NCBI GenBank assembly: GCA_947629215.1
Contig: CANRCU010000001.1
Coordinates: 1-38,701, forward strand
DNA from: an uncultured Clostridia bacterium
GTDB lineage: Bacteria > Bacillota > Clostridia > Lachnospirales > CAG-274
Length of the DNA: 38,701 nucleotides
Direction: 5' to 3'
Under the pieces are notes generated by a model that had not been told where the DNA came from, did no database searches, and was given only the letters and a program-made list of their open reading frames with translations. Positions within the stretch are counted from its first letter, which is position 1. Each line of letters starts with the position of its first letter. The translations under genes and the position numbers were made by a program. Of this stretch, positions 7,513 through 28,762 are shown piece by piece.

Positions 7513-10500
7513 TTATGACGTTCTCTCAACTTCAAATTCAAAAGTAGAAAGAAGTGCTTTTTGCAATATTGCCGCCGCTGCCGCCGCAGTTATGCCATCT
7601 TTTGTGACACGGCTGTTTATAAGCCCCTGCGGTGTCATTGTTATTGCCTGCGGATTAAGCACATATTGCAGAACGAAAGCCGAATCGGCAGCATTGACAA
7701 TGCCGTCGCAGTTGGCATCGCCAAGCAGCGTTTTTTGTGACGGACCGACAGGCTTATCCCCACCGTGATCATCCGATGTAGTTGATTCGGTCGTAGTTTC
7801 GGTCGATACACTCGAAGTAGTCGTTTCTGTCGATACGCTCGCAGTGGTCGTTTCTGTCGATGTTTCTGTCGATGTGCTTGAAGTGGTAGATTCGGGTTTG
7901 CTGTGTCCACCCTGTTCTTTGGTCGTGGTTTCGGTCGATGTACTCGCAGTGGTGGTTTCGGTCGTTGATTCCGTGCTTGTTACGGTACTTTCACCGCCGT
8001 TGAGCGAATATTCAAGCAGATAAAGGTGAGCTTCCTTTTTATTTCTCTTGAATGTGACCGTACCTGCCTTTACGGGTACCGTCATTATTTTTTCGGTCAG
8101 TTCGTATACAGTACCGTTCAAAGTGATGCTTGAGCTTGCCAAAGCGTCGGTAACTATTGTAAGGTATCCGTCTTTTGGCGCTTCAAAGGTAATGGTCAAC
8201 CCCGAAGTTATTTTGATAGCCTTGTTAAGCGTCTGACCGTTATATTCTACGGGATTATTTTTGGCAGAACTCCAGTTGTTGGCATCTTGCACATCAAAGA
8301 AATTTTCCGTATTTGTGCCGTCCGTATAATTCCATACAAAGAGAGTGCCTTTGCTTACCATATTTGCCGTTACGGAAACTTCCGAGCCTTTTACAGCCGT
8401 TATCGTGCCGGAAGTCATTGAATCGACTTTCCAACCCGGAACATTTATTTTTATCTCAAACGGTGTGCCGACTTCGACTTTGCCTGTAAATGTACCGCTG
8501 CCGTTGCCTGTAAGCGCGGTATTGCCGACACTTACGCTTGCGTTCGTCACATCGAAACTTTCGGTTTCGCCTGCGGCAGGTTTGAGTATTACCGACACCG
8601 AACCAAGCTCTTTGTCAAGGTGCAGCGGTGTAGGCGTATTTGTTGTCCTGACGGTTATTTCGGCATTTTCAAGCGGCACATAATCGCCCGTATTTGTTAT
8701 CGAAACTTTGTATTTGCCGACGGCTATCTCGTTTGCGGACTGATAAAGACCGCCGCCCTTGTCGGCAAGCACGGTGCCGTCCGCAAGTTTAACGGTCACT
8801 CCCGTTACAGGTGTATTGCCCGAACCGCCCGTGAGCATTACAGCCGCATAGCCGTTGCTGTCGGTCGGAAGGTCAAGTTTGCCGCTGAACGTGTCGCCGT
8901 CTTTAGCCAAGGTCGTTGTGAGCGATTTGCTTGAATAGCCCTCTTTTGATGCCGTTACCGTTATTTCCATACCCAAAGGTACGATATTTGCGGTATAAGT
9001 GCCGTCACCGTTGTTTACAAAGGTTATACCCTCGGCGGTCACATCCGCATCCGTTATAGGTGTGCTGCCGCTTACAACGGTCACCGTTATAGAACCGGAT
9101 TCGGTCAAGGGGAATGCCTGAAGCGTGCCTGCATGTGTCTTTACATATTCGGGTACGTCTTTTGTGTCGTTAAGTACCGACACATTCGATTTTCCGTTCG
9201 AAAAATAGAATTGTTCGGGATTCTGATCCCATTCGGCAATGGAATCACCGTTGGGGAATTTCAGCCCGTTGTCCCCGGGGCCTGCATCGGTCCTCTTCTC
9301 GGCTTTGACGGTCTTGCCTTTCAGGCTGTCCTCGGTGCAGTCGCCCGATGTCATATCGCCGAAAGTTTTAAGATAGGACACATCGTGTCTTTCGTTATAA
9401 ATATTTTTACAGTTGTCGAAATAGTTGTTTTCGGAGAAACAGTGCGCATGACCACGCAAGTCTATGACCTGACTGGTGTTATGCTTTTTTGCGGGACCGT
9501 TATCCTGGAAATATGTGTTGTATATATGTATATTTCCGCCTGCGCCAAGGGGCTGCCTTGATGCAACGTCCTCGTACCAGTTGTGGTGCAGTGTCATATA
9601 GAACTGATTTTCCTTTTCGCTTGCGCCGAGCAAATTGGTTTTATGGCACTTGATATAGTGGTTATAGCTCATTGTGTAGTATTGACCGCGCTTGAAATCG
9701 CATGAGCCGTCGCCTTCCGCTTTGTCGCTTTCGGTCGGATTGGCGCAGTAACCCGGATAAAATACGTTGTTATGCACCCATACACGTTTTATAGGCGATG
9801 TTATTGCGTCGTCACCCTGGAAGCCGAGCGCATCTTCGGGATAGTTTTTGAAAGTCAGGTTCCTTACTTCAAAACTTTCGCCCGCATCGGCAGGGCAGGT
9901 CTTTGTTTGCGAAAAAGTGAAACCCCAGCCGTCTATAACACAGTCGTCGCCGATACCCTCTATGGTGATGTTCTTACCGTATTTTGTTATTGCAAGATTG
10001 CCGTTGTCGCCTTCGCCGCCGCCAAGCTCATTTGTCTTTGCATCATAAGGCGTTAAATTTTCGGGCGGTGTTACCGTGCCTATAAAGCGGAATATCAGGG
10101 GGTGATCGTCACATTTTACATTGCCGTCAAAGCCCTTTGCCGTTTCGCTTGAAGGGCCTGTTATCCTTCTTATAAGGTGGTGGTTGTTGTTTAAGATATT
10201 GCCTATACCGTTGCTGCCCCTTGTCCAGGTAGCGCCAGAAGAAGATGAGGAATATTTTACGGTAAGGTCCTCATAGCCGGGAACGGAAACGGTGTTTTTG
10301 TTTTCGTCGGTAACATAAACGATTATTGCATTGTCCTTTGGTGTACCGTCGTTATTGTATGCGCCCACGCCCTCGCTGCGTTTGAAATGCGCATAACCCG
10401 AACGGTCGTTTGCATAAACAAGAATGTTGCTTCTTGTGTATACGGTATTGTCGGATGCCGTGACCTCAATATCGTATCTGCCCGCTTTAAGACCGGGAAT

Positions 10501-10782
10501 ATCCACCCTGCCTCTGCCGCTTGTGCTTGCTTTGCGCACCAGATACTTCAAATCGTCACCCGAAAGATAGGTGTAGTCGGTGTCGCCCGTCTGCCTGTAG
10601 CCTACTTTTACATTGGCTGCATCGGGGTCGCTGTCTGCCCATTCGGCATAAAGTGTTTCATACCAACCCGCGCATACGTTAAAAGCGGCAGCTTGGGCCG
10701 TCACAGTACCGATATGCACCGATGTAAGAAGCATTGAAACAGCCAGAACGGAGGACATGATTTTTTTGAATGCTTTCTTCAT
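7513..10782 (-). CDS. Secreted multidomain pectate lyase-like enzyme (PL1-type beta-helix) with Ig-like/CBM-like modules, a Thr-rich linker and a C-terminal dockerin
   Basis: Signal peptide. Catalytic-type blocks VWVHNNVFYPG, DGSCDFKRGQYYTMSYNHY and SRQPLGAGGNIHIYNTYF (compare the vWiDH and RxPxxRxGxxHxxNN motifs of PL1). These are followed by ~450 aa of beta-rich modules, an S/T linker and the dockerin LLGDANCDGIVNAADSAFVLQYVL. The start is placed at ATG 10782 (AAGGA 5-7 nt upstream). The ORF-track ATG at 10791 has no spacing from its RBS. Confidence 0.7.
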   Translation of the reverse strand: MKKAFKKIMSSVLAVSMLLTSVHIGTVTAQAAAFNVCAGWYETLYAEWADSDPDAANVKVGYRQTGDTDYTYLSGDDLKYLVRKASTSGRGRVDIPGLKAGRYDIEVTASDNTVYTRSNILVYANDRSGYAHFKRSEGVGAYNNDGTPKDNAIIVYVTDENKNTVSVPGYEDLTVKYSSSSSGATWTRGSNGIGNILNNNHHLIRRITGPSSETAKGFDGNVKCDDHPLIFRFIGTVTPPENLTPYDAKTNELGGGEGDNGNLAITKYGKNITIEGIGDDCVIDGWGFTFSQTKTCPADAGESFEVRNLTFKNYPEDALGFQGDDAITSPIKRVWVHNNVFYPGYCANPTESDKAEGDGSCDFKRGQYYTMSYNHYIKCHKTNLLGASEKENQFYMTLHHNWYEDVASRQPLGAGGNIHIYNTYFQDNGPAKKHNTSQVIDLRGHAHCFSENNYFDNCKNIYNERHDVSYLKTFGDMTSGDCTEDSLKGKTVKAEKRTDAGPGDNGLKFPNGDSIAEWDQNPEQFYFSNGKSNVSVLNDTKDVPEYVKTHAGTLQAFPLTESGSITVTVVSGSTPITDADVTAEGITFVNNGDGTYTANIVPLGMEITVTASKEGYSSKSLTTTLAKDGDTFSGKLDLPTDSNGYAAVMLTGGSGNTPVTGVTVKLADGTVLADKGGGLYQSANEIAVGKYKVSITNTGDYVPLENAEITVRTTNTPTPLHLDKELGSVSVILKPAAGETESFDVTNASVSVGNTALTGNGSGTFTGKVEVGTPFEIKINVPGWKVDSMTSGTITAVKGSEVSVTANMVSKGTLFVWNYTDGTNTENFFDVQDANNWSSAKNNPVEYNGQTLNKAIKITSGLTITFEAPKDGYLTIVTDALASSSITLNGTVYELTEKIMTVPVKAGTVTFKRNKKEAHLYLLEYSLNGGESTVTSTESTTETTTASTSTETTTKEQGGHSKPESTTSSTSTETSTETTTASVSTETTTSSVSTETTTESTTSDDHGGDKPVGPSQKTLLGDANCDGIVNAADSAFVLQYVLNPQAITMTPQGLINSRVTKDGITAAAAAAILQKALLSTFEFEVERTS

Positions 10783-10840
10783 AAATACCATCCTTTTTTA
10801 GTTTTGCGGCATATCCTGAAAAAATATGCCATACGCCGTG

Positions 10841-11890
10841 TTACAACAAGTAAGCAGCCGTTCGGGTCTTGCCGTCCCATGTGACTTTAAAGCCGAGCGC
10901 TTCGCCGAGCGCGCGGAACGGCAGATATATCCGGTCGTTTTTTATCTCCGCAAAAGCGCCGTATTTAAAATAGACGCGTTTCCCGTCCGCAAGCATATAC
11001 CTTCGGTTTGCGGTTATTTCTACCTTATGACCGTTATATACGACTACAGCTGTTTTTGTGCGGGCGTTCCATGTGATGTTGACATCATCGCCCAACCCTT
11101 TTTGTAAAGAACGCACAGATATTAAAGTTGAATTGCTGCTTTTTTGTATATAAGGTGAGTATATAACGAAAATGGGTACTTTGTCAAGATATGCAATAGA
11201 AGAATCTATCATAAAAGTCAATATTTTTTTGGCAAATCTGACCGAGCTTTTACTTTTGGGCGCCAGTTTCTTTTCGGCAGTGGTCTGTTCCGTTGTGGTT
11301 TCCTTTACGGGTTCTGTCTTGTTTTTGTTGGCAAGCCGTGAAAAACCGCTGTTAAACACGCCTCCGCCGCTGCCTCCGCTGCCGCCTCCACCACCGCTGC
11401 CCGAATGAGAACCGCTTGTCGGTCTTTCGGTCGTGGTCGTTTCGGTGGTCGGGTCTTTATCCTGTTTTTGTGTGGTCGTTTCGGTCGTGGTGTCCCGGCT
11501 TTGTGTAGTGGTTTCGGTCGGGGCGCTGTGTCCCTGTGTTGTAGGCTCTGTCGGTGTATCCGGTCTTTGTGTGGTATCTTCCGTTGTGGGATCCGGGTCT
11601 GACGAACCCGGCGGCAATACGGTAGTTTCCTCGCCCGAATTACCCGTAAAGTCCTCGGTGGTCGTTTCGGTATCGGTTTCCGTGTCGGGTTCGGTTGTGG
11701 GTTCGGTAGTACTCTCCGTGTCGGTCACGTTATCGGTAGTACTCTCCGTATCGGTTTCGGTAGTTATCTCAATATCGGTCGTAATTTCCGTGTCGGTTTC
11801 GTTACCGTCACCGGCATAAACAATAAACGCCGACAAAAACAATACCAACATTACGGATATTGCCGAATACAAAATTTTCGGTTTTACCAT
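10841..11890 (-). CDS. Secreted or membrane-anchored Thr/Glu/Asp-rich protein with a Gly/Ser tract and a C-terminal copper-amine-oxidase-N-like (stalk) domain
   Basis: ATG 11890 is preceded by GAGGAGAG inside the end of the kinase gene, with a 1-nt gap after the kinase stop. N-terminal hydrophobic segment ILYSAISVMLVLFLSAFIVYA. C-terminus KVEITANRRYMLADGKRVYF...IYLPFRALGEALGFKVTWDGKTRTA. Confidence 0.6.
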   Translation of the reverse strand: MVKPKILYSAISVMLVLFLSAFIVYAGDGNETDTEITTDIEITTETDTESTTDNVTDTESTTEPTTEPDTETDTETTTEDFTGNSGEETTVLPPGSSDPDPTTEDTTQRPDTPTEPTTQGHSAPTETTTQSRDTTTETTTQKQDKDPTTETTTTERPTSGSHSGSGGGGGSGGSGGGVFNSGFSRLANKNKTEPVKETTTEQTTAEKKLAPKSKSSVRFAKKILTFMIDSSIAYLDKVPIFVIYSPYIQKSSNSTLISVRSLQKGLGDDVNITWNARTKTAVVVYNGHKVEITANRRYMLADGKRVYFKYGAFAEIKNDRIYLPFRALGEALGFKVTWDGKTRTAAYLL

Positions 11891-11891
11891 C

Positions 11892-13178
11892 TTAATCACT
11901 CTCCTCACTCAAAAGCGGCGGTTTGAGCAGAACATATATTGTGATAACGCCGTTTTCCGCGCTGAAATCAAATTCGCCGTTATAGCGGTGTACAATATCT
12001 TTTATTATTTTTATGCCCATACCGTGGTTTTCGCGGTCGGGCTTGGTCGTTACAAAATCCGTGCCGACTATAACGGGCATTTTTGCTATGGAGTTAAGCG
12101 TTGAGATATAGATATAATCCCCCTGCATCTTTACTTTTAATTGTACAAAGCCGCCTTGGCATTTCGCAGCCGCCTCTATCGCATTGTCAAGCAGGTTTGA
12201 TATAAGCGACGACATATCCGTGCGTTTTATATTGACCTCGCCCATAACACCCGTTACGCTCAGTTTAACGCCCGCTTTTTCGGCAAGCTCGGCTTTTTGT
12301 GTGATGACTATATCGGCTATGCTGTTTTGAAGATAGCTTTTGTACGGCCTGTCAAGCGTGCCGGCTACGCTTTGCAGATATTCTTCGGTTTCTTTTATTT
12401 TCTTTTGGCGCAGCAATTCCATTGCGGTGAAGATATGGTTTTTGCAGTCATGCACGGCAAGCCTTGTCTGCTCGTTGCCTGCGGCAAGAGTGCTGTAAAA
12501 TTTTTCGTTTGCTTTGAGAGAGTTTGCTATTTCACGGCTTTCATAATATGCCGTGTAAAAATGCGTAAGACTGTTGAACAAAAGAAATACCAGAACGATT
12601 ATTGCAAACATGATTATGGATATAAACGAAAATGTAAGTCTTGTTTCGGGGTCTGTGTTATATGATACAAGGCAAATACATTCCATACAGACGGTTATCA
12701 TAAAAATCGCCGATGTGAGTATAAGACGGTATCTAACAGGCGCGCTGAACTGCATCTCAATGCGTCCGCTGTTTATTATGCCTATAAAAATAAGCCGCGC
12801 AAACAGTATACCGACCAGATTGAACATTGGCAGCTCTGCAAATTCGGCATAGCGTGAACGCAGAACAAGCGTAAATATACCCATAACAAGCAGCTCGCTT
12901 ATCTCTATAAAAACAAAGTACAAAAGCGCAACAATAAACGAGCCGAGGGGTCTGAGCTTAAAGCACATACAAACGCACCAGCTTACAAATATGGCGATAA
13001 ACGGCGCAATAATGCGATCGGAGAGATAATGCACACGTATAAAGCTGAGTATTGCGGCAGTTAACAGCGGCAGCAGAGTTTCAGCCCCGAAATGTATACG
13101 CGTATACTTGCATACGAGCATATAAAGCAAAAGACTGTCAAAAAGACAGACAGCAAGCTCGAAAAATATCCAGAGCAT
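11892..13178 (-). CDS. AgrC/ComD-type (HPK10, GHKL) sensor histidine kinase with a 6-7 TM sensor
   Basis: Polytopic N-terminal half. H-box AVHDCKNHIF, N-box SNLLDNAIEAA and G-box ENHGMGIKIIKDIV. RBS GAGGAGG lies in the end of the regulator gene (2-nt gap). Confidence 0.85.
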   Translation of the reverse strand: MLWIFFELAVCLFDSLLLYMLVCKYTRIHFGAETLLPLLTAAILSFIRVHYLSDRIIAPFIAIFVSWCVCMCFKLRPLGSFIVALLYFVFIEISELLVMGIFTLVLRSRYAEFAELPMFNLVGILFARLIFIGIINSGRIEMQFSAPVRYRLILTSAIFMITVCMECICLVSYNTDPETRLTFSFISIIMFAIIVLVFLLFNSLTHFYTAYYESREIANSLKANEKFYSTLAAGNEQTRLAVHDCKNHIFTAMELLRQKKIKETEEYLQSVAGTLDRPYKSYLQNSIADIVITQKAELAEKAGVKLSVTGVMGEVNIKRTDMSSLISNLLDNAIEAAAKCQGGFVQLKVKMQGDYIYISTLNSIAKMPVIVGTDFVTTKPDRENHGMGIKIIKDIVHRYNGEFDFSAENGVITIYVLLKPPLLSEESD

Positions 13179-13180
13179 TT

Positions 13181-13897
13181 TCAGTCCTCCTCGATATAGC
13201 GAAAGTACCTTTGTTTTACCTGACGCACCATATACGGTCGTGAACCGATGTATATATGCTCGCCATTGGAAAGCACAATGTCGTTTTTTTCAAAACAGTT
13301 TATGTGAGCCATATTTACAAGATAAGAGCGATGCACGCACACAAAGCCTTGGTCGGTCAGTTTATCGGTCAGATCGGAAAGTTTGCTGCCCGTGACCTCA
13401 AAACTGCCTTTAAGCGTTACTACAGAGAGCTGTCTTAGGTTGTATTCAAAATAAATTATATGGGGCAGCGCAAAGGTAAGCTGAGTTTTTGCGCTTGAAC
13501 GCGCTTTTATGTTAAGAGTGATGCAGCGGTTTTCGGGCTTGGTATCAAAAGCAGCCGTCAAGCCCTCTTCAAGAGCGGCTTCGTCACCTTTTGCAACAAA
13601 GCGGAAAGCACGGTATTTATAACCGTCAAAAACTCTGCCGACCTCGGATGTAAGAAAAATAACGCGGGCTTTGCTGTCGGACTTGTTAAGGCGTTCCGCA
13701 AGCTCAAAACCGTCTGTATCCGGCATTGCTATATCAAGTATGAACAAGTCCGTATCCGACGTATCGCCCGAAAGCAGGGCGTCTGCGCTGTCGTAACAGT
13801 CTATTGCAATATCTTTGCCTGCAAGGGAGCGGTTTATAAAATCTTTTGTGCTTTGAAGTATTTCTTTTTGATCGTCACAAATAACTATCTTAAACAA
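13181..13897 (-). CDS. LytTR-family response regulator
   Basis: Receiver domain KIVICDDQ...LFILDIAMPDTDGFELA and C-terminal LytTR domain FVCVHRSYLVNMAHI. TTG start at 13897, 7 nt after AAAGGGGA. Confidence 0.9.
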   Translation of the reverse strand: MFKIVICDDQKEILQSTKDFINRSLAGKDIAIDCYDSADALLSGDTSDTDLFILDIAMPDTDGFELAERLNKSDSKARVIFLTSEVGRVFDGYKYRAFRFVAKGDEAALEEGLTAAFDTKPENRCITLNIKARSSAKTQLTFALPHIIYFEYNLRQLSVVTLKGSFEVTGSKLSDLTDKLTDQGFVCVHRSYLVNMAHINCFEKNDIVLSNGEHIYIGSRPYMVRQVKQRYFRYIEED

Positions 13898-13921: not shown

Positions 13922-14569
13922 TTATAATTTGGCGGCAAGCCTTATTATCCTGCTTGTGCCAAGCCTGTCCGCGCCTGCGGCTATCATTTTTTCGGCGTCG
14001 TCAAGGCTGCTTATGCCGCCTGCGGCTTTTATCTTTTTGGTTTTTATATTTTGCGCAAATAATTCTATATCGCTCAATTTTGCGCCTGCGCTGCCAAAAC
14101 CCGTGCTGGTCTTTATAAAATCGGCATCGCTTTGCTCGACCACACGGCACATATTTATTTTTTCTTCTTCGGTCAGGTCGCAGGTTTCTATTATAACCTT
14201 CAGCAAAGCGCCTCCGCAGGCATCTTTTATTTTATTTATCTCTTTAAGTATGCTTGCATATTTTTTTGCTTTGACGTCCCCGCGGTTGATGACCATATCA
14301 ATTTCGTCCGCACCGTCCTTCACGGCGGTCTTTGCCTCGTAAGCCTTGACATCGGCGGTATTGTAGCCGTTTGGGAAGCCGATGACCGTGCATATTTTTA
14401 TGCGTTCGCCAACATAGTCCTTAGCCTGTCCGACAAAACAGGGCGGTATGCAGATGCTTGCCGCACCGTATTTTATGCCTTCGTCGCATATCTGCCTTAT
14501 GTCGTCCCACGTTGCCGTTACCGAAAGCAAAGTATGGTCGACTTTTGAAAGTATCTCATTTATCTCCAT
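13922..14569 (-). CDS. deoC: Deoxyribose-phosphate aldolase
   Basis: VDHTLL, ICIPPCFV, CTVIGFPNGY, GADEIDMVIN, KVIIETCDLT, DFIKTSTGF and IKAAGGI...GADRLGTS. The start is placed at ATG 14569 and overlaps the upstream gene by 14 nt. Confidence 0.85.
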   Translation of the reverse strand: MEINEILSKVDHTLLSVTATWDDIRQICDEGIKYGAASICIPPCFVGQAKDYVGERIKICTVIGFPNGYNTADVKAYEAKTAVKDGADEIDMVINRGDVKAKKYASILKEINKIKDACGGALLKVIIETCDLTEEEKINMCRVVEQSDADFIKTSTGFGSAGAKLSDIELFAQNIKTKKIKAAGGISSLDDAEKMIAAGADRLGTSRIIRLAAKL

Positions 14570-15815
14570 TTTTCTTTTTTTCCTCCCATAACAGATTTTC
14601 GACAAACTGTTTTGCCGTCCTGCCCGACATTCCCTTTTGGTTGAGTTCCCAGCGCAGAGCGGCTTGTTTTATCTCCTCATCGGGGAGAGTTATGCCGTTT
14701 TTGCGCGCAAGCCCTATGGCTATTTTCACATATTCCTGAGGGGTCGGTTTTGCATATGTTATGGTTATGCCGAAACGGTCGGAAAGCGAGAGTTTTTCGT
14801 TCATCGTATCGGTGGTATGTATATCGGCGACTGCGCTTGCGGTGTTGCGGTCGCTCCATTTTTCCTGTATAATGTGGCGGCGGTTGCTTGTCGCATAGAA
14901 AAGCACATTGTCGGGCTTGCCCTCGCTGCCGCCTTCAAGCAGGGATTTCATATACTTATATTGCAGCTCGTTTTCGTCGAATGAAAGGTCGTCTATATAA
15001 ATGATAAACTTTCTGCCGCGCGGTCTTAAAAGTTTAAGAATATCGGGCAAATCCGCTATCTGCTCTTTTGTTATCTCAACAAGGCGCAGACCTTGTGTGT
15101 GGTATTCGTTTATAAGCGCTTTTATGGAAGATGATTTTCCCGTACCCCTTGCACCGACAAGCAGTATATTGTTTGCGGGGCAGTTGTTTATAAAAGCGAG
15201 CGTATTGTCGCGCAGCTCTTCTATCTGGCTTGTATAACCGATAAGGTCGTCAAAAGTTATCTTGTCGGGGTGGGTTATGCCGACAAGCGCCTTTTTGTCG
15301 CTGTTATATTTGAAAACACGGTAGACGGAAATATCCCCGCAGCCGTTTTTGCGGTGAAAAGCTATTATATCTTCAAGCGTCAGGTTTTCGGATACATCGC
15401 TTTTGCCGCTTTCGACAGGACGATAATCCATAAGTGTTTCCATAGCCGACATCATAAAACGGCTGTCGGGCAGCTCCGTCAAGTCTGTTTCGGAAAGCTC
15501 CGTCAGCGCCCGAATATCCGCTTTTGCAAGCTCATAAAGAGATGTACCCTCAACTTTTTTGTTATTTTCGCAAAGCAGCGTGAATATATTCTCATCGGAT
15601 ATGATGAGGTGCCTTATGTAATTGCCGAAAAGATTGCCGCTGAAATGCTTTTCCTCGGCGCGGTTTACAAGAAATTCCGTTAATTCTGCAAGATACGGAA
15701 GGTTGTCGTCCGCCGTGAAAATATTTTTCAATATCTTGATTATTTCGTCGTCGGCTATTTTTTTGTATATCGTAAGTGAATTTATGCCGTCAAGCAGCCT
15801 GTTGCAGTCAGTCAT
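14556..15815 (-). CDS. DUF815-type AAA-family ATP-binding protein with an uncharacterised ~190-aa N-terminal region
   Basis: Walker A LLVGARGTGKSS, Walker B FIIYIDDLSF and YATSNRRHII match the DUF815 (PF05673) pattern as I recall it. RBS AAGGGGG follows a 15-nt gap after the upstream small gene. Confidence 0.75.
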   Translation of the reverse strand: MTDCNRLLDGINSLTIYKKIADDEIIKILKNIFTADDNLPYLAELTEFLVNRAEEKHFSGNLFGNYIRHLIISDENIFTLLCENNKKVEGTSLYELAKADIRALTELSETDLTELPDSRFMMSAMETLMDYRPVESGKSDVSENLTLEDIIAFHRKNGCGDISVYRVFKYNSDKKALVGITHPDKITFDDLIGYTSQIEELRDNTLAFINNCPANNILLVGARGTGKSSSIKALINEYHTQGLRLVEITKEQIADLPDILKLLRPRGRKFIIYIDDLSFDENELQYKYMKSLLEGGSEGKPDNVLFYATSNRRHIIQEKWSDRNTASAVADIHTTDTMNEKLSLSDRFGITITYAKPTPQEYVKIAIGLARKNGITLPDEEIKQAALRWELNQKGMSGRTAKQFVENLLWEEKKKNGDK

Positions 15816-15830: not shown

Positions 15831-16106
15831 TTAAAGCGATGATATGAACATTTCGTAGGCGTCCGCCCACTCCTCTATGGGATATGTTGCGCCGCCGTTG
15901 GTGCTTTTGAGCATATTGCTCCACAGCGTTTCATTCAGCGCAAGCAGCTCACCCAAGTCCACGGGGCAGCCGTTTTCGGCTGCGATACGGCAAAAAGCCG
16001 CCATGGGGTCGTCTGCGTTCTGCGTCGCTTTAAGGGCATTGCAAAGTTCCTTATTATCGGCTGCAAGTTTATGCAGTTTATCAAGCATATCGTTTATATC
16101 GTTCAT
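15831..16106 (-). CDS. Nif11-like small protein (91 aa) with an internal Gly-Gly; possible leader-peptide-type precursor
   Basis: MLDKLHKLAADNKELCNALKATQNADDPMAAFCRIAAENGCPVDLGEL follows the Nif11 pattern (L..F..K...D..L...L.........A.E.G..V....L). It is followed by ...MLKSTNGG-ATYPIEEWADAYEMFISSL. There is an RBS (GGGGG) and a plausible promoter upstream. Confidence 0.5.
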   Translation of the reverse strand: MNDINDMLDKLHKLAADNKELCNALKATQNADDPMAAFCRIAAENGCPVDLGELLALNETLWSNMLKSTNGGATYPIEEWADAYEMFISSL

Positions 16107-16191: not shown

Positions 16192-16220
16192 ATAATAACA
16201 TACGCCAAGCCCCGAAACAA
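16192..16220 (-). promoter_or_regulatory. Minus-strand promoter TTGTTT-17-TATTAT for the Nif11-like gene string
   Basis: Read on the minus strand, TTGTTT is at 16220..16215 and TATTAT at 16197..16192, about 85 nt upstream of ATG 16106. Confidence 0.4.
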
Positions 16221-16228
16221 GCGGATAT

Positions 16229-16259
16229 GTATGAATTGACGGTTTTTGGTATGAACTGA
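16229..16259 (-). promoter_or_regulatory. Pair of 11-nt direct repeats resembling LytTR (AgrA/ComE-type) binding boxes
   Basis: On the minus strand, TCAGTTCATAC and TCAATTCATAC lie 20 bp apart start to start. The pair ends 8 bp upstream of the -35 above. The 9-mers fit [TA][AC][CA]GTTN[AG][TG]. Confidence 0.45.
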
Positions 16260-16360
16260 TATTCGGATAAAATTTCTAATTTATTTTTAATACTGATTTT
16301 ATTGTGTTTTAAATTTTGCATTTTATAATATCGGCAATAATAAAAACGGAGGTATCTGAT

Positions 16361-18523
16361 ATGAAACGAAAATTGTTTGTTATGCTTGCGGCATTGATGT
16401 GCCAAAGCTGCATATGTATGACTGCCTGCGGAGCGGAGGTTTCTGCCGTGCAGGCGGCGGTGAACGTTAACGGGAAAAATGTATCCGACGAGGCGCTTTT
16501 GTCCGACGGGAACAAACTTATACCCGCAAGGGGCGTGCTGTCGGAGTTGGGGTTTGAGCTTATATATGAACCGTCGCTCGGTCAGCTCTATGTCTGCAAA
16601 AACAAAAAGCTGCTCATAATGACGGTCGGTTCGTCACAGGCGTCTTATAAAGGCGAAACAACGGAATTGTCGGCAGCGCCCGTTATGACAAACGGCAGCG
16701 TTTATATCCCTTACGACGTTATATCGGGGGTATTGGGGTATGATGTCAATATCGGCTCGGACGGCAGTGTATCGGTGCTTGACCCCGAAGACGAGAAAGA
16801 CAAAACAGAAAATACCGGAACAATAGACCTTGATGCATCCAAAGTCACGGGCGAGGGCGTAAGCATTGACGGAAATGTCGTCAAAATAACCAAAGGCGGC
16901 GATTTCACGGTCAAAGGCAGTTTTAACGGCAGTATCACGGTCGATACGAACGAAAGGGTGAAACTGAGGCTTGACGGGGTAAATATCAAGGCTTCGGACG
17001 GTCCCGCAATTGATTTTAAAAACACGGATAAGTCTTTTATAACGCTTGAGGAAGGCAGCAAAAATATTCTTGCCGACAGTGAAAATTACAGTGACGAGGA
17101 CGCCAAAGCAACGCTTTTTTCAAATGCCGATTTGGAGATAAAGGGCAGCGGTTCGCTTGAGATAACATCGGTATACAAACACGGCATTGCAAGCGATGAT
17201 GTGCTTGATATAGAAAACGGCAATGTGAGCATTACGGCAAAAAGCGACGGTCTGCACGCAAACGACGGTATCGAGATAAAAGGCGGCAATATTGTGATAA
17301 ATGCAGGGGAAGACGGTATAGACTGCGAGGGCTATACGGATATTGCTGACGGTGTGTTAAAGATAACGGCATCGGGCGAAGCCGAACCGAGCGCAAATAA
17401 TGATTTCGGAATGCATATGAACGGCAATGCGGGCATGAAACCATGGGGAGGACAACCGCAGGAAGAACTTCAACAGGGAGAATTTCCGCAAGGTGAACCA
17501 CCGCAGAGAGAATTTCAACAGGGTGAACTACCGCAGGGAGATTTTCCGCAGAGAGAATTTCAACAGAGTGAGCCTCTGCAGGGAATGCCCGAAGGCTTTA
17601 AAATGCAAGGCACAAAAATACCGACCGACGAACAGACGGAAAGCACGACCGACGCATATCCAAGCAGCAAAGGCATCAGTTCCGACGGCTATCTTATGAT
17701 AAGGGGCGGAAATATTGAAATAGATTCAAACGATACCTGCATAAAATCCGAAAGTTTTATAAATGTGAGCGGAGGCAGCCTGACACTTGATTCAAGCGTC
17801 AAAAAAGGCATAAAAGCAACCGACGACCTGTTTGTGAACGGCGGTACTCTGACTGTGAATGCAGCCGATGAGGGGCTTGAAAGCAAGCGTGTTATGACGA
17901 TAAACGGCGGCGACATAAAGATAACCTCAAAAGATGACGGCATAAACGCAGGCGGCGGCAACGGCGGTATGCGCGGTGACCCGAGCGAATACGGTGAGCA
18001 TCATATCATAGTAAACGGCGGTAAAATAACGATAGACGCAGGCGGCGACGGTATAGACTCAAACGGTAATTTGACCTTCAACGGCGGTGAATGCGTTATT
18101 TACGGACCGGAAAACGGCGGAAATTCGGCTATGGACGCAAACGGTGAAATAAACGTCAACGGCGGTATTCTGCTTGCATTCGGCAGCGTCGGTATGGTCG
18201 AAACGCCGAGCGAAAATTCCAAACAAAACGTTATAAATGCCGCTTTTGACAATGTACAAAACGGCGGTTCCGAGTTTCGTCTGACGGCGTCGGACGGCAG
18301 TGTGACCGTTTCCGACATCCCCGAAAAGACCTATCAGTCGGTAATATATTCTTCGCCCGATATAAAAGACGGCGAAAGTTACACCATATCGGCAAACGGT
18401 GTTGACGGCGGCAGCGCCAAAGTCGACGGAAAGATAACATCAATAGGCGAAAATGCCGAACGAGGTATGGGTTTTGGCGGTATGAAAAGGGGTATGGGAC
18501 ACCGCCCCGTTCAGATAAACTAA
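16361..18523 (+). CDS. Lipoprotein with an N-terminal stalk (Cu_amine_oxidN1-like) domain and a Cthe_2159-type carbohydrate-binding beta-helix domain
   Basis: GGAGG lies 8 nt before ATG 16361. Lipobox-like signal MLAALMCQSCICMTAC|G. Repeated turns such as DGIDCEG, DDGINAGGG and GDGIDSNGNLTFNGGECVIYGP...NSAMDANGEINVNGGILLAFG are typical of the PF14262 family (from memory). Confidence 0.7.
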   Translation: MKRKLFVMLAALMCQSCICMTACGAEVSAVQAAVNVNGKNVSDEALLSDGNKLIPARGVLSELGFELIYEPSLGQLYVCKNKKLLIMTVGSSQASYKGETTELSAAPVMTNGSVYIPYDVISGVLGYDVNIGSDGSVSVLDPEDEKDKTENTGTIDLDASKVTGEGVSIDGNVVKITKGGDFTVKGSFNGSITVDTNERVKLRLDGVNIKASDGPAIDFKNTDKSFITLEEGSKNILADSENYSDEDAKATLFSNADLEIKGSGSLEITSVYKHGIASDDVLDIENGNVSITAKSDGLHANDGIEIKGGNIVINAGEDGIDCEGYTDIADGVLKITASGEAEPSANNDFGMHMNGNAGMKPWGGQPQEELQQGEFPQGEPPQREFQQGELPQGDFPQREFQQSEPLQGMPEGFKMQGTKIPTDEQTESTTDAYPSSKGISSDGYLMIRGGNIEIDSNDTCIKSESFINVSGGSLTLDSSVKKGIKATDDLFVNGGTLTVNAADEGLESKRVMTINGGDIKITSKDDGINAGGGNGGMRGDPSEYGEHHIIVNGGKITIDAGGDGIDSNGNLTFNGGECVIYGPENGGNSAMDANGEINVNGGILLAFGSVGMVETPSENSKQNVINAAFDNVQNGGSEFRLTASDGSVTVSDIPEKTYQSVIYSSPDIKDGESYTISANGVDGGSAKVDGKITSIGENAERGMGFGGMKRGMGHRPVQIN
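17471..17584 (+). repeat. About 2.5 copies of a 45-bp in-frame repeat encoding QQGEFPQGEPPQREF
   Basis: 17471..17515 and 17516..17560 align almost base for base, followed by a partial third unit. The repeat is inserted between beta-helix segments. Confidence 0.8.
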
Positions 18524-21493: not shown

Positions 21494-21537
21494 ATAAGTA
21501 TATGTCTTTGCATTGTTTTGATCGGGGGAGAAGAAAA

Positions 21538-22227
21538 ATGGCTTATAAAATATTGGTCGTCGATGATGAAAAGCTGATAGTAAAAGGTATACGTTTCAGC
21601 CTTGAAAAAGAAAATATGGAGGTAGATGTCGCTTATGACGGCGAAGAGGCGCTGAGCCTTGCCGCCGAAAACGATTACAGCCTTATTTTGCTTGATGTTA
21701 TGTTACCCAAGATAGACGGGCTTGAAGTCTGTCAAAGGATAAGGGAGTTTTCAAACGTACCCGTCATCATGGTCACAGCCAAGGGCGAAGATATGGATAA
21801 GATAATGGGGCTTGAATACGGCGCCGACGATTATATAACCAAGCCTTTCAATATATTGGAGCTTAAAGCGCGCATCAAAGCCATATTGCGGCGCAGCGTG
21901 CGAACGGTGTCCGTTACCGAAGAAAAGAAAAAAACGCTCAAAATGCGTGAACTTGAAATAGACCTCGATTCCCGCCGCTGTTTTATAAACGGCAAGGAGA
22001 AAAAGCTGACCGCCAAAGAATTTGATATGTTGGAGCTTTTTATGGAAAATCCGGGCAAGGTATACAGCCGTGAAAATCTGCTCAATACGATATGGGGCAT
22101 AGGCTATCCCGGCGATGCGCGCGCAGTCGACGTACATGTGAGGCGTTTGCGCGAAAAAATCGAAGAAAAGCCGAGCGAACCGCAGTATATCCACACCAAA
22201 TGGGGGGTAGGTTATTATTTCAGGTAA
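21538..22227 (+). CDS. OmpR/PhoB-family response regulator
   Basis: MAYKILVVDDE...LILLDVMLPKIDGLEV...VIMVTAKGE..DKI.GLE.GADDYITKPF followed by a winged-helix C-terminus ...VDVHVRRLREKIE...IHTKWGVGYYF. The start is placed at ATG 21538 behind GGGGGAGAAG. Confidence 0.9.
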   Translation: MAYKILVVDDEKLIVKGIRFSLEKENMEVDVAYDGEEALSLAAENDYSLILLDVMLPKIDGLEVCQRIREFSNVPVIMVTAKGEDMDKIMGLEYGADDYITKPFNILELKARIKAILRRSVRTVSVTEEKKKTLKMRELEIDLDSRRCFINGKEKKLTAKEFDMLELFMENPGKVYSRENLLNTIWGIGYPGDARAVDVHVRRLREKIEEKPSEPQYIHTKWGVGYYFR

Positions 22228-22291
22228 TTTTGGCATAAGGTGGTATCAGAGTTTCAAGCCCAAGCTTTTTGTTGCCTCCTTTCTTATAGGT

Positions 22292-23662
22292 ATGCTGCCG
22301 CTTTTGGTGTATTCAATGTTCATATCGGACAGTTTAAAGACCTATTTTCGCAATACCAACGAAAAAGAGCTTTTGTATCAGGCAAACAAAGTGGCAGTCA
22401 GCATACAAAAAAACAACTATCTCACGGACGAAAACAAAAAACAACAGTTTGTCGATGAGATGGATATAAAAAGCGAGGAAGAGGGCTTTCGTATAATCGT
22501 GACCGACAGCCTTGGCCATGCCGTGACGGATACGAACCGTTCGGCGATAGGCAAAATGTGCATAGTACCCGAGATACTTGTTGCCCTTGACGGCAAAGAC
22601 GAGGCAAACCTGAGAGAAAGCGAGGGCGTTATATATGCGTCGGCTTATATCGAGGACGAGGAGTCGCGCAAGATAGGCGCTGTGCTTTTGGTGTCGTCTT
22701 TTGACGAGGTGAACAATATCATATCCGATGTCGACCACAACGGTTTTATAATAATGATAATACTTGTACTCACGCTTGCGGTCATCACGTTTTTTTTATC
22801 ACAGGCAATATTTTCGCCGCTGAACAACATTCTTGAAACCATACAGCGCATATCAGACGGTCAGTTCCACAACCGCCTTGATATAAAGGGGCATAACGAG
22901 CTGAGCCGCCTTGGCGAAGCCATAAACGTTATGACACAGCAGCTGGAGCATGTTGACACCGCAAGGCAGGAATTTGTTTCAAATGTGTCGCACGAGCTGA
23001 AAACGCCGCTGAGCAGTATGAAGGTGTTGAGCGAATCGCTGCTTTTGCAGCAGGATATGGATGTGGAGATGTACCGCGAGTTTATGCAGGACATAAATTC
23101 CGAAGTAGACCGTATGACGAACATAATAAACGACCTGCTTGCGCTTGTAAAGCTGGATTACCGTGAAGAAGGCATGCTGAACATAGCGGAAACGAACCTT
23201 ACCGAGCTTGTTGCCGCCATAATAAAACGGCTGACCCCGCTTGCCGATAAAAAGCATATCGAGCTGGAGTTTGAATGTTCAAAGGAAATAATCATAGAAG
23301 CCGACGAGATGAAACTGACGCTTGCGTTGTCAAATCTTGTGGAAAACGCCATAAAATACACTCCCGGATACGGCAGTGTCAGCGTAACGGTGGATTGCGA
23401 CCATCAGAATGCATTTTTCAGCGTCAAAGACACGGGCATAGGCATCAGCGCCGAAGAACAGAGCAAGATATTCAACCGTTTTTACCGTGTTGACAAAACA
23501 CGTGACCGCGAAACGGGCGGAACGGGGCTTGGGCTTGCAATAACACATTCCACGGTGATGATGCATAACGGCAGTATAAAGGTAACAAGCGCCGAAGGCG
23601 AAGGCGCAACTTTTGTTGTGCGTCTGCCCATCAAGCAACATCAGGGAGGCGCCGGAAAATGA
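22292..23662 (+). CDS. Sensor histidine kinase (extracytoplasmic loop, HAMP, HisKA, HATPase_c); 5' end uncertain
   Basis: H-box FVSNVSHELKTPLSSM, N-box LSNLVENAIKYT and G-boxes KDTGIGI and GGTGLGLAI. Coordinates start at the first ATG, but the same frame is open from 22211 and encodes the rest of TM1 (see finding). Confidence 0.85.
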   Translation: MLPLLVYSMFISDSLKTYFRNTNEKELLYQANKVAVSIQKNNYLTDENKKQQFVDEMDIKSEEEGFRIIVTDSLGHAVTDTNRSAIGKMCIVPEILVALDGKDEANLRESEGVIYASAYIEDEESRKIGAVLLVSSFDEVNNIISDVDHNGFIIMIILVLTLAVITFFLSQAIFSPLNNILETIQRISDGQFHNRLDIKGHNELSRLGEAINVMTQQLEHVDTARQEFVSNVSHELKTPLSSMKVLSESLLLQQDMDVEMYREFMQDINSEVDRMTNIINDLLALVKLDYREEGMLNIAETNLTELVAAIIKRLTPLADKKHIELEFECSKEIIIEADEMKLTLALSNLVENAIKYTPGYGSVSVTVDCDHQNAFFSVKDTGIGISAEEQSKIFNRFYRVDKTRDRETGGTGLGLAITHSTVMMHNGSIKVTSAEGEGATFVVRLPIKQHQGGAGK

Positions 23663-24648
23663 GTTTGAAAAAAAACAAGACAATAAACAAAAAAGCCGTG
23701 TTTGCGGCAGGGCTTGCCGCCGTGCTGCTGACAGCGGCTTGCATATATCTTTTTACGGTGTTTTTTGCCGACGATAGCAATGACGAAGGCAAAATAGAGC
23801 TGTATTATATAAACAACATAACGGGCGTGCTTGAGGCGGAATCACGCAGAACGGAGCTGCCCGAAAACAGGGAAGAAGCTGTACGCACGGTTTTTAACGA
23901 GTATGTGAACGGGTCTGCAAATTCAAATCTTTCTCTTGCCGACCCCGAACTCAAAAACTTTACTTCGCTGACCTATCCCGTCGACGGCAACGAGAGCATA
24001 GCCAAAATAAATTTTACGGACAGTTTCAACAAGCTGAGCGCATCCAAACAGCTGCTATGCATATCGGGCATGGTATATACGCTGACGGGGCTTGATTATT
24101 TAAGGAATGTGTATTTTTATGTAAACGACGAGCCGCTTGTGAATATGAACGGCGAGGCGGTAGAGCGCTATAACAGGAACAATGTTGCCATAAACCCGAG
24201 CCTTGACCCCGAAAAGACCGACAGACAGCTTGTTGTGCTTTATTTTACAAATGCGGGGCAAAACAAGCTTATGCCCGAAGAACGCAGCATTGAGATAAAA
24301 CAGAGCCGTACCACCGAATATCAGATAGTCGAGCAGCTTATACAGGGGCCTCTTGACAGCAGCCTTGTACCCACCGTTTCAAGCGATGTGAAAATAAGGG
24401 ATATAAAGACCGAGGGCGATATTTGTTATGTCAATCTTTCTTCGGAATTTATGACAAAAAACAACGTCACTCCCGCCGAAGAAACAATGACGATATATTC
24501 CATTGTAAATTCACTTACGGAGCTTGACACAGTGACCAAGGTACAGTTTCTTATAGAGGGCGAAAAGCTGACGGAATACAAGGGTCACCTTGATTTCAGC
24601 AAGACTTTCGAGCGTGATACGAGCCTTATATACGAAGGCAAAAAATGA
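23659..24648 (+). CDS. Membrane-anchored protein with two GerMN domains
   Basis: ATGA overlap with the kinase stop. One N-terminal TM. The patterns IELYYIN...LEAESR and LVVLYFTNAGQNKLMPEERSIE...IVEQLIQGP...VKIRDIKTEGDICYVNLSSEF are typical GerMN signatures. Confidence 0.6.
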   Translation: MSLKKNKTINKKAVFAAGLAAVLLTAACIYLFTVFFADDSNDEGKIELYYINNITGVLEAESRRTELPENREEAVRTVFNEYVNGSANSNLSLADPELKNFTSLTYPVDGNESIAKINFTDSFNKLSASKQLLCISGMVYTLTGLDYLRNVYFYVNDEPLVNMNGEAVERYNRNNVAINPSLDPEKTDRQLVVLYFTNAGQNKLMPEERSIEIKQSRTTEYQIVEQLIQGPLDSSLVPTVSSDVKIRDIKTEGDICYVNLSSEFMTKNNVTPAEETMTIYSIVNSLTELDTVTKVQFLIEGEKLTEYKGHLDFSKTFERDTSLIYEGKK

Positions 24649-24705: not shown

Positions 24706-24741
24706 AAGCTGTAAACCTACCAAGCGAAAAGGAGAATGGCT

Positions 24742-25467
24742 ATGAAAAAATTATTGATATTATTGCTGTTATGCTGTACGGCATTGACAGCTTGCGGAAA
24801 TGACGAAACGACGGAAAGTGAACAACCGGCAGACAACACTGCGGCTGAACAGGCTCAACAGGCTGAACAGAGCGCTCCCGCTCAACAGGAAGCGCCTGCG
24901 GCAACGACAAGCAACAATAAGTCGCCCTATGATTTTGCCGACGGTGTTCTGACCAAAGGTCATACCAACAGCAGCGAAATTGTTATTGCGGACGATATAA
25001 CAAAAATTGACGGTTTTGCTTTCAAAGACTGCACGGAACTCAAAAAGATAGTTATACCGAACAGTGTTACGTCAATAGGCGATTATGCGTTCAGCGGCTG
25101 CAAATCGCTTGAAACCGTACAGATAGGTACGGGCGTTACAAGCCTTGGCAAAAATGCTTTTAACGGCTGTTCGGCTATTCGTTCCATAACCCTGCCCGCA
25201 AGCGTGACTGTTTTGCAGGATAACACATTTTCGGGATGTTCGTCGCTTGCGGCTTGCGGACTGCCCGCAAACCTTACGGAGATAGGCAATTATGTTTTCA
25301 AGGATTGCTCTGCGCTGAAAAAGCTTGTTATACCCGCAAGTGTAACAAAGCTTGGCAACGACCCGTTTGAGGGCTGTACGGGGCTTAAAAGCATTGAATG
25401 CACAAAGGGCAGCCCTGCCGAGGATAAAGCGCTTTATAATGCGGATACAATAGTTGTTGCAAAATAA
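24742..25467 (+). CDS. Lipoprotein with BspA-type leucine-rich repeats (LRR_5)
   Basis: Lipobox LLCCTALTAC|G, a Q/A-rich spacer, then repeats of I.IP.SVT.IG..AF.GC..L. The start is the second ATG, 7 nt after GGAGA. Confidence 0.7.
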   Translation: MKKLLILLLLCCTALTACGNDETTESEQPADNTAAEQAQQAEQSAPAQQEAPAATTSNNKSPYDFADGVLTKGHTNSSEIVIADDITKIDGFAFKDCTELKKIVIPNSVTSIGDYAFSGCKSLETVQIGTGVTSLGKNAFNGCSAIRSITLPASVTVLQDNTFSGCSSLAACGLPANLTEIGNYVFKDCSALKKLVIPASVTKLGNDPFEGCTGLKSIECTKGSPAEDKALYNADTIVVAK

Positions 25468-25608
25468 TATCAAACAGACAGGTAAGTACTCACCGCCAAA
25501 AAAGGCGAGGGGTACTTACTGTTGTATTCGGTGAAAGAAATAAGCCGAGCGTCTTACTCGGTCGATAAAAAATATACGGTCTGTTAAATTTATAAGGAGG
25601 AATTTTTG

Positions 25609-27753
25609 ATGAAGTTTAAAAAGCAGATATGCCTTATAATGGCAGGAATGATGACAGTGGGAACGCTGAATACGGTTTTTGCCGACAGCAGTTACAAAAC
25701 AACCGGTGAAGCCGTTGTCGCCATGGCAGCGGATGACGAAGTTGTATATCCCGCGGAAGGGGGAAATATCCGTTTTGACAAAAGCACGGGTACGGTCACA
25801 TACGCGGACAAGACCATAACATCCGCAAATATACCGGATACAATTGACGGAGTACAGGTAACAGCCATAGGGGACAATGCATTTTACAGATGTATGGAAC
25901 TGACAGCAGTGACTATACCCGAAAATGTAACCTATATAGGGGAAAGCGCCTTTTTTGATTGTGAATCTTTGACAAACATAAACATACCGCAAAAAGTTAC
26001 ATTTATAAAACGAGGCGCATTTGAATACTGTGAGAGTATTACAAGCATAACCATACCAAAGGGCGTTACATCTATCGAGGACGATGCATTTTGCGGTTGT
26101 TTGAAATTAACGGCTGTAACTTTGCCCGAAGGTTTAACGACCATAGGGCAGTACGGGTTTGAAGGCTGCGTAAGTCTGGCAGATATAAATTTACCCGAAG
26201 GTCTGACATCAATAGGGGAATATGCATTTCAGAGTTGTGCCTTAAAAAGCATAACCATACCCCAAAGTGTGACGGAAATCAAAGAGCGCGCATTTTTTGA
26301 TTGTGACGGTCTGACAAGCATCACTCTGCCCAAAAATTTAACATCGGTGGGTTTAGGGGCATTTGGATATTGTGACGGTCTGACTGAGATAAATGTTCCC
26401 GAAGACGGCATCGGTTTTACGGATATTGACGGAGTTTTGTTCAATAAGGATAAGACCGAATTATGGTCTTTCCCCGCGGGCAAAACGGATACGGAGTATA
26501 CAATACCCGACGGTGTGACGGATATTAAAAAAGGCGCTTTTATAGGCTGCAAAAATTTAAAAAACATAACCATACCAAACGGTGTAACAAATATTGAAGG
26601 CTCGGCATTTGCAAACTGTGAAGGGCTGACGACCGTGACTATACCCGAAAGCGTATTGTTTATAGAAAATACGGCATTCGGTTCCTGCACTGCCCTGACG
26701 GATATTTATGTTTCGGAAGGCAACAAAAATTATACCGATGTTGACGGTATCCTGTTCAATAAAGCAAAGACCGGTATAGAGTGTTATCCCATAGCCAAGG
26801 AAGCTGCGGTATATACGATACCCGAGGGCGTAACAACTATAGGTAAATGCGCATTTGTGGACTGTGTAAATTTAAAGGATATAAACATACCCGAAAGTGT
26901 AAACAGTATAGGAGCCGCCGCATTTTGCGGCTGTGCCGCATTGGAAGATATGACCATACCCGAAGGTGTGACAAATATCGGTGATTCTACATTTTTGGAC
27001 TGCCTGCATTTAAAAACCGTAAATATACCCCAAGGTGTAACAGCCATAGGCAACGCAGCATTTGAAGGCTGTACAAGCCTTAGCGAGATGACCATACCCG
27101 ACGGAGTGACAGAAATCGCAGACGAAACATTCAGGTATTGTTCGTCACTGACAGACGTCCATATCCCCGACGGTGTAGAATGCATAGGTATGTATGCATT
27201 TGAATATTGCGGAAATTTAAAGAATATAGTTTTGCCCGACAGTATAAAATTGATCGATGTAGCCGCATTTGACGGCTGTGAGGGGCTTACAAGCATAGAT
27301 ATACCCAAAAATACGGAGCTAATCGGCGCAGGCGCTTTTTATGACTGTAAGGGGCTGACAAGCATAAGCATACCCTCCGCTGTACAGGAGATAGAAAGCG
27401 AAGCATTTGAAGGCTGTATAAACCTTAAGGATGTTTATTACGACGGCACTAAAGAGGAATGGAACAGCTTATCTAAGGACTTTGGCAATGATGCTCTGCT
27501 CAATGCAACGATACATTACAACGGCGGTATAAACTACGGTGATGCAGACTGTAACGGTGAGATAACCGCAGCGGATTCGGCAATGGTATTGCAGAAGGTA
27601 CTTAAAACCGACTTTGAAATGACCGTTGAGAAAAAAACCGACGACTATATGTCCGTTGTGGACGTGGACGGAAACAAAGAACTCAATGCTGCGGATGCCT
27701 CTATAATATTGCAGAAGTCGCTTATAAATTCATTCAAAATGCCTTGTGAATAA
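25609..27753 (+). CDS. Secreted BspA-type LRR protein (~24 repeats) with a C-terminal dockerin
   Basis: AAGGAGGA RBS and a signal peptide. The ~23-aa unit (I)TIPEGVT.IG..AF..C..L is reiterated. The dockerin YGDADCNGEITAADSAMVLQKVL...VDVDGNKELNAADASIILQKSL lies at 27535..27750. Confidence 0.75.
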   Translation: MKFKKQICLIMAGMMTVGTLNTVFADSSYKTTGEAVVAMAADDEVVYPAEGGNIRFDKSTGTVTYADKTITSANIPDTIDGVQVTAIGDNAFYRCMELTAVTIPENVTYIGESAFFDCESLTNINIPQKVTFIKRGAFEYCESITSITIPKGVTSIEDDAFCGCLKLTAVTLPEGLTTIGQYGFEGCVSLADINLPEGLTSIGEYAFQSCALKSITIPQSVTEIKERAFFDCDGLTSITLPKNLTSVGLGAFGYCDGLTEINVPEDGIGFTDIDGVLFNKDKTELWSFPAGKTDTEYTIPDGVTDIKKGAFIGCKNLKNITIPNGVTNIEGSAFANCEGLTTVTIPESVLFIENTAFGSCTALTDIYVSEGNKNYTDVDGILFNKAKTGIECYPIAKEAAVYTIPEGVTTIGKCAFVDCVNLKDINIPESVNSIGAAAFCGCAALEDMTIPEGVTNIGDSTFLDCLHLKTVNIPQGVTAIGNAAFEGCTSLSEMTIPDGVTEIADETFRYCSSLTDVHIPDGVECIGMYAFEYCGNLKNIVLPDSIKLIDVAAFDGCEGLTSIDIPKNTELIGAGAFYDCKGLTSISIPSAVQEIESEAFEGCINLKDVYYDGTKEEWNSLSKDFGNDALLNATIHYNGGINYGDADCNGEITAADSAMVLQKVLKTDFEMTVEKKTDDYMSVVDVDGNKELNAADASIILQKSLINSFKMPCE

Positions 27754-28725: not shown

Positions 28726-28762
28726 GAAAAAAATCGCAAAAAAACTTTTCACGGAGGGCATT

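Follow-up and report, generated by a model that had tools for sequence, protein, structure and literature searches.

On the minus strand of the window, by which we mean the whole stretch of 38,701 nucleotides (38.7 kb) analysed here, two direct repeats stand directly upstream of a promoter-like sequence. The promoter points at a string of genes that includes a LytTR response regulator and an AgrC-like histidine kinase. Is this repeat pair the binding site of the regulator encoded in the same string, and do both belong to a peptide-pheromone autoinduction loop, as a preliminary description of the sequence had proposed? The same architecture is conserved 5' of orthologous operons, and this comparative support from four lineages makes the repeats very probably the site of the regulator encoded at 13181-13897. 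The pheromone became very doubtful.

Repeats, promoter and gene module in the window

Read on the minus strand, the distal box DR1 (TCAGTTCATAC, 16249..16259) and the proximal box DR2 (TCAATTCATAC, 16229..16239) are 11-mers with 10 of 11 identical positions, separated by 9 nt, and their starts are 20 bp apart. Defined as 9-mers they leave a gap of 11 nt; defined as cores they form TTCATAC-N13-TTCATAC, with the cores at 16255-16249 and 16235-16229 and the 13-nt spacer at 16236..16248. The cores lie 20 bp or about two helical turns apart, thus both should face one side of the DNA. Sequence inspection revealed no third box 20 bp upstream of DR1. The -35-like hexamer TTGTTT (16215..16220) begins 8 bp 3' of the proximal box and is followed, after a spacer of 17 nt, by the extended -10 element TGtTATTAT (16192..16200; TATTAT at 16197-16192, TG at 16200-16199). 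This promoter, P1, has a -35 that was missing from a simple promoter scan because just 3 of its 6 bases match TTGACA. Its start site is predicted near 16185, so that the boxes would be centred at about -47 and -67. A recheck of the sequence confirmed repeats, spacings, -35 and -10 as they had been given before. An Rfam search of the intergenic region yielded no match.

LytTR sites consist of two direct repeats of 9-11 nt with spacers of 11-13 nt and have no common consensus (PMC4847170), and in LytTR operons the repeats are located 4-11 bp from the -35 with a separation of 11-13 bp (PMC6193735). The boxes agree with these sites in the length of the repeat pair, the spacer, the distance to the -35 of the predicted promoter and the presence of a LytTR regulator in cis. 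The 11-nt gap, regarded in the preliminary description as deviating from characterised sites, falls within the published range of 11-13 nt (PMC4847170, PMC6193735).

Judged by the window alone, the pair is not exceptional. Fifteen direct repeats of equal identity occur in the window at distances of 15-25 bp. The 9-mer consensus [TA][AC][CA]GTTN[AG][TG], whose fit had been presented as evidence, is matched perfectly at 32 sites of the window, where about 48 would be expected, and with a single mismatch at 608; two pairs pass the consensus criterion that had been applied, versus 2.2 expected by chance. The window boxes fit this consensus with 0 and 1 mismatches, which is a chance-level fit, and the ortholog boxes fit it poorly. 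The other consensus pair is located at 13357-13386 on the plus strand (TCAGTTTAT, 12 nt, AAAGTTTGC; 21 bp phasing), within the coding sequence of the regulator; it is compatible with chance and illustrates the weakness of the 9-mer consensus. On window statistics alone, repeat and consensus fit are not beyond chance. The 11-mer TCARTTCATAC has two sites in the window, DR1 and DR2, and no further site was found in the window at one mismatch; the exact TTCATAC pair pattern occurs once. A search for further regulon sites with up to three mismatches in the window and in the orthologous locus L101 returned chance-level matches, nothing more.

The regulator (13181..13897, minus strand) combines a receiver domain with a LytTR domain (Pfam Response_reg, 1.1e-14; LytTR, 6.1e-13). 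Its best NCBIfam matches, BtsR, LytR and AgrA, are weak, and it is not a VirR ortholog. A PDB sequence search with the regulator retrieved matches to the receiver domain only and is therefore uninformative on DNA recognition. The adjacent gene (11892..13178, minus strand) codes for a polytopic histidine kinase of the AgrC/ComD architectural type (HATPase_c_5, 7.8e-19), with about 6-7 transmembrane segments, a His243/His248 region and a GHKL domain. To the AgrC model it aligns weakly over the full length, at 4.7e-6 and far under the cutoff, which is a likeness in architecture and not orthology. The third gene of the module (10841..11908, minus strand; start codon uncertain) codes for a protein, secreted or anchored in the membrane, that carries a Thr/Glu-rich linker and, at its C-terminus, a Cu_amine_oxidN1 domain (Pfam). 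Compared with its L101 counterpart, the kinase shows 52% identity over the full length, and the C-terminal 173 amino acids of the third protein share 60% identity with the product of the gene behind the L101 kinase gene. Kinase and third gene are syntenic with L101, therefore the conserved unit comprises regulator, kinase and surface protein.

The Cu_amine_oxidN1 domain is present in three proteins of the window, encoded at 1234-2172 (plus strand), 10841-11908 (minus strand) and 16361-18523 (plus strand). The gene at 10841-11908 and the divergent gene for a Cthe_2159 beta-helix protein bracket the box-controlled gene string, which hints at a relation of the system to cell-surface proteins. Several genes of the window (2282-3620 and 7513-10791, minus strand; 3691-5169, 24736-27753 and 28637-35104, plus strand) form a cellulosome-type context: a sigma-70 family factor with regions 2 and 4 followed by an unannotated gene, dockerin proteins, a pectate lyase with CBM77 and dockerin, BspA-type LRR proteins and a 2155-aa protein with FctA/SpaA isopeptide domains. 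They point to cellulosome-bearing Clostridia of rumen or gut. The remaining genes include an OmpR/HisKA two-component system with a Germane-domain gene (21502-24648), SpoVT (27820-28581) and ftsZ/ftsQ at the right end.

Conservation upstream of orthologous regulators

Few orthologs of the regulator were available overall. The GTDB genome scan contributed a single one, and a metagenome scan with the regulator alignment retrieved only relatives with 25-31% identity, which are not orthologs. Besides the window, three deep lineages with sublineages formed the base of the comparison. Identities to the window regulator were 54-55% for L001/L104, 61% for L100, 56% for L101/L102/L103 and 55% for L105/L106; between the box-bearing lineages the regulators were 52-75% identical.

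The pattern TTCATAC-N13-TTCATAC-N8-TTGT[TG][TA]-N17-TG.TA...T was found directly 5' of the regulator gene in L001/L104, L100 and L101-L103, where this conserved architecture is located 37-53 nt before the start codon of the regulator. Among 106 loci, the exact pair pattern was present in six, each time upstream of an orthologous regulator and always at the same position. In the alignment of the four lineages, all 23 motif columns (both boxes, the TTGT of the -35, and TG, TA and T of the extended -10) were invariant, versus 8 of the 93 other columns. A 7-mer pair common to all four upstream regions at one distance was not obtained in any of 2000 shuffles. The cores of the distal and of the proximal box are invariant in the four lineages, as are the length of the 13-nt spacer, the 8 bp between proximal box and -35, and the 17 nt between -35 and -10. 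Within the spacer, CG.C (16241, 16240 and 16238) is invariant across the aligned lineages and may be an extension of the proximal box. The repeat is more than chance because its sequence, spacing and position have been kept across the lineages.

The alignment also altered the definition of the box. The base preceding TTCATAC varies and is a G in four of the eight boxes, so that the alignment to the 'GTT' of the published consensus was fortuitous. Judged by the aligned sequences, the conserved box core is TTCATAC, shifted 3' of the 9-mer described earlier. Such sites are identified by phylogenetic footprinting, not by a fit to a loose 'LytTR consensus'. In the search of orthologous loci, proposed in the preliminary description as a check, the pair was found in L001/L104, L100 and L101-L103, and the boxes are absent upstream of the regulator in the ortholog group L105/L106. 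At least one lineage can therefore do without autoregulation.

Upstream of the regulator in the box-less L105/L106 there is a GC-rich element of about 440 bp, which is also located 5' of a 91-aa gene in L108-L110; it is 87-96% identical between loci (L105, 1-440; L110, 1-340; L108; L109). The element in L105 and L110 has no Rfam match. It ends in ...GAGCATAAACGATAATTTA; L100 and L101, which bear boxes but not the element, likewise contain the 13-mer AAACGATAATTTA. The element may be mobile or repeated, with a target preference, or else an artefact of assembly across a repeat. More distant LytTR regulators, with 28-31% identity to that of the window (L081, L083, L003, L093), have their own, different direct repeats of 7-8 nt with 18-22 bp phasing just 5' of TGnTAnAAT-type promoters, e.g., ATCTATTT at a distance of 20 in L081. 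These repeats appear to fit the general autoregulatory pattern of LytTR proteins.

The inserted cassette and the alternative explanations

Between P1 and the first gene of the string lies a second full promoter that is absent from the preliminary description. This promoter, P2 (16137..16165, minus strand), consists of TTGTAT (16165-16160), a 17-nt spacer and TGtTAAAAT (16145-16137), and it is followed by a GGGGG ribosome-binding site and the ATG at 16106 of a gene for a 91-aa Nif11-domain protein (15831..16106). Downstream on the same strand are genes for a DUF815 P-loop ATPase (14556..15815; Pfam E = 1.5e-93) and a DeoC-family aldolase (13922..14569; ATG 14569 chosen as start by homology). 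The stop codon of deoC precedes the TTG start of the regulator by 24 nt, and no hairpin or terminator was predicted between them. In the tightly packed region from 16106 to 13181 no terminator was predicted, one weak site inside the kinase gene excepted. The apparent TTG start of the regulator (13895-13897) has the ribosome-binding site GGGGA 7 nt upstream. The L100 ortholog starts with ATG, and the TTG may reflect a rearranged junction with deoC.

Relatives carry the 91-aa gene elsewhere. L107, which shares its sample with L100, has the order tRNA, a hairpin with a T run (recognised by eye), a promoter, a 94-aa gene, Cytidylate_kin2, DUF815 and DeoC, followed by convergent genes. The identity of the window proteins to the L107 copies (DUF815 86%, 91-aa protein 77%, DeoC 75%) is well above the conservation of the regulator. 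The 91-aa gene is alone in L108-L110, of which L109 stems from the sample of L101 and L110 from the MAG assembly of L102, and has yet other contexts in L111-L114. The 91-aa gene and the regulator are on separate contigs in the L101 and L102 assemblies and in the L100 sample. A counterpart of P2, cTTGTAT-17-TAAAAT, is present at the same place 5' of the 91-aa gene in L107 and L114, both box-less, and no boxes were found at the 91-aa loci of relatives. P2 and the cassette are thus shown to be of separate evolutionary origin from the P1 module. The fused arrangement of P1, cassette and regulator was seen in this window only. The simplest history suggested by these comparisons is that a segment P2-91aa-DUF815-DeoC came to sit between P1 and the ribosome-binding site of the regulator.

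The insertion raises the question whether P1 still matters. The boxes and P1 might be an ancestral relic, irrelevant since the insertion, with the operon running from P2 or from an internal promoter. P2 is complete and conserved with the cassette, and a weak promoter-like site in the 3' end of deoC (13971-13944) could feed the regulator independently. The insertion, known from this window only, is possibly recent, and in L105/L106 the module exists without boxes. On paper P1 and P2 are alike (-35 with 3 of 6 bases, -10 with 5 of 6, both with TG), and because they are equally strong in this respect an activator dependence of P1 is not readable from the sequence. Against a relic stand the motif columns and all three spacings, which are intact throughout although they should have decayed after any insertion that is not recent, and the lack of a block to read-through from P1. 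We consider this explanation unlikely.

Less probable still is that another protein, e.g., an XRE-type HTH_26 regulator, binds the boxes, or that their main target is the divergent Cthe_2159 gene at 16361. The orthologs have the boxes in an intergenic region shared with a divergent DUF2975-HTH_26 operon, and in the window two weak plus-strand promoter-like sites overlap the boxes. However, the overlapping plus-strand hexamers are not conserved, and it is only with respect to the regulator side that the boxes keep a constant orientation and a constant 8 bp to the -35. Homologs of HTH_26 and DUF2975 are absent from the window, which has nevertheless kept the boxes; HTH_26 was rejected as the binder because its gene is missing there. 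For an XRE protein the palindrome TTATCG-N5-CGATAA (TTATTG in L001) is better suited. It was observed at about 7810-7830 in L101, about 3335-3355 in L100 and at the equivalent place in L001/L104, apart from the LytTR boxes and nearer to the divergent operon, and is likely the operator of the HTH_26 regulator. A role of the repeats at the divergent gene, mentioned earlier as a possibility, found no support: none of the orthologs has this neighbour, and some 45 bp past the boxes the gene carries a promoter of its own (TTGTGT-16-TATAAT, 16302-16329, plus strand), followed by GGAGG and the ATG at 16361.

The peptide-pheromone loop depends on the 91-aa protein. It would be a precursor of the leader-GG type, whose C-terminal 19-20 residues, once cleaved off, would act as the signal for the AgrC-like kinase. 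RiPP precursors with Nif11-type leaders that end in GG are known, and the kinase is polytopic like the sensors of peptides. The 91-aa family comprises 66 clusters; 13 of 17 members match Pfam Nif11 in the N-terminal part, while the window copy itself is sub-threshold, and an invariant GG follows. In the alignment of 17 members with 51-79% identity to the window copy, however, the C-terminus with the motif LKSTNGGATYPIE.W is invariant, so that conservation is highest in the presumed core, opposite to the cores of pheromones and RiPPs. The 91-aa gene is unlinked to regulator and kinase in all relatives examined, and the ortholog leaders of 37-53 nt are too short for a peptide gene; none was called in L101. 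Neither AgrB nor a C39-ABC exporter nor a candidate precursor was among the Pfam matches of the main ORFs of the window. A rhomboid gene is located downstream in L101, and none in the window. Because of its invariant C-terminus and the unlinked position of its gene elsewhere, the 91-aa protein was rejected as a Nif11-leader precursor of a pheromone or bacteriocin. The first gene of the string codes for a conserved Nif11-domain protein with its own promoter and other loci in relatives, and a peptide-pheromone loop is to be seen as very improbable.

The family was noticed as widespread: about 90 residues long, it occurs in Clostridia with a Nif11-like N-terminus and the motif LKSTNGGATYPIE[DE]W.DAYE.F, and its genes often adjoin those for Cytidylate_kin2, DUF815 and DeoC. 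The invariant GG recalls the cleavage sites of Nif11-type leaders, yet the 'core' does not vary.

A variant of the pheromone reading is that the insertion itself made a new circuit, in which the 91-aa protein is cleaved after GG and the kinase responds to the exported peptide ATYPIEEWADAYEMFISSL (19-20 residues). The LytTR loop would in that case have gained its autoinducer from a small protein of housekeeping-like character; we give this very little credence. In a milder version it is conceivable that DUF815, DeoC and the Nif11-like protein were captured as signal-responsive members of the regulon by promoter stacking of P1 and P2. A chance repeat without function, which the equally good repeats of the window and the chance-level consensus fit would allow, is hardly credible in view of the shuffles and the invariant motif columns.

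Proposed circuit and relation to known systems

Taken together, the TTCATAC boxes are probably the tandem binding site of the regulator encoded at 13181-13897 and would form with P1 the native, positively autoregulated promoter of the three-gene module. For binding, activation, start sites and read-through we infer the following course. The membrane domain of the kinase would sense a signal and the kinase would phosphorylate the regulator, probably on Asp55. Two regulator molecules would occupy the boxes, centred near -47 and -67, and assist RNA polymerase at P1, which would increase the transcription of regulator and kinase. Since the cassette of 2.25 kb is located between P1 and the regulator, the loop must read through three extra genes. 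The cassette genes would join the regulon, and P2 may provide a signal-independent basal expression of regulator and kinase. The inserted cassette would thus be a small natural case of operon and promoter stacking with a constitutive promoter inside a loop. The motif TTCATAC-N13-TTCATAC at 8 bp from the -35 may serve as a recognition motif for this family of LytTR two-component systems, whose host group appears to be cellulosome-bearing Clostridia of rumen and gut, and is usable for regulon scans of genomes.

Among the known LytTR systems, one likeness is to YpdB (PyrR) of E. coli. The direct repeat upstream of yhjX, GGCATTTCAT, has a TTCAT core as the boxes do, a shared feature that is possibly meaningless, and YpdB is likewise a LytTR response regulator, working with a LytS-like kinase that does not sense peptides (PMC4847170). 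In contrast to the system described here, YpdB is proteobacterial and its target is a transporter gene, not its own operon (PMC4847170). With agr of Staphylococcus aureus and with ComE/PlnC the module shares the AgrC-type polytopic kinase. A polytopic kinase and a LytTR regulator are present, and a feedback promoter is suggested by the comparison of loci; the agr, com and pln operons, however, encode a peptide precursor and a function for its processing or export, and neither a precursor gene nor an AgrB or C39-ABC function was found in the 38.7-kb window. The proximal AgrA repeat is centred near -60 and agr promoters have suboptimal spacers of 18-20 nt (PMC4227749), whereas the proximal box would be centred near -47 in front of a promoter with an optimal 17-nt spacer.

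The VirR/VirS system of Clostridium perfringens is alike in organisation: it is a clostridial LytTR response regulator with a polytopic kinase and without a pheromone gene in the operon, and its two direct repeats form a core of about 50 bp just 5' of the -35, where they share one helix face and keep a constant position to the promoter. VirR boxes are of the type CCAGTT.T.CAC, the boxes in the window of the type TTCATAC, and the regulator is no ortholog of VirR. The location of VirR boxes immediately 5' of the -35 on one helix face has been found to be phase-dependent (PMC2838878).

The autoregulatory promoters of hdrRM and brsRM are further counterparts. The hdrRM promoter of S. mutans has an extended -10 and repeats 8 nt 5' of the -35, and its autoactivation was demonstrated by EMSA and reporter assays (PMC6193735). 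In both systems, as in the window, the repeat pair is directly 5' of the -35 (in hdrRM at the same 8 nt), the -10 is extended, the repeats stray from the 'LytTR consensus' and the regulator acts by positive feedback on its own operon, which for the window is our inference. They differ in that hdrRM and brsRM consist of a stand-alone LytTR protein and a membrane inhibitor, in place of a receiver-domain regulator and a histidine kinase, and in the sequence of the box, here TTCATAC. For specialists the autoregulatory class itself holds no surprise, autoregulation by LytTR proteins through direct repeats being well established; newly defined is the box TTCATAC with its 20-bp phasing, and unusual is the cassette inserted in the loop.
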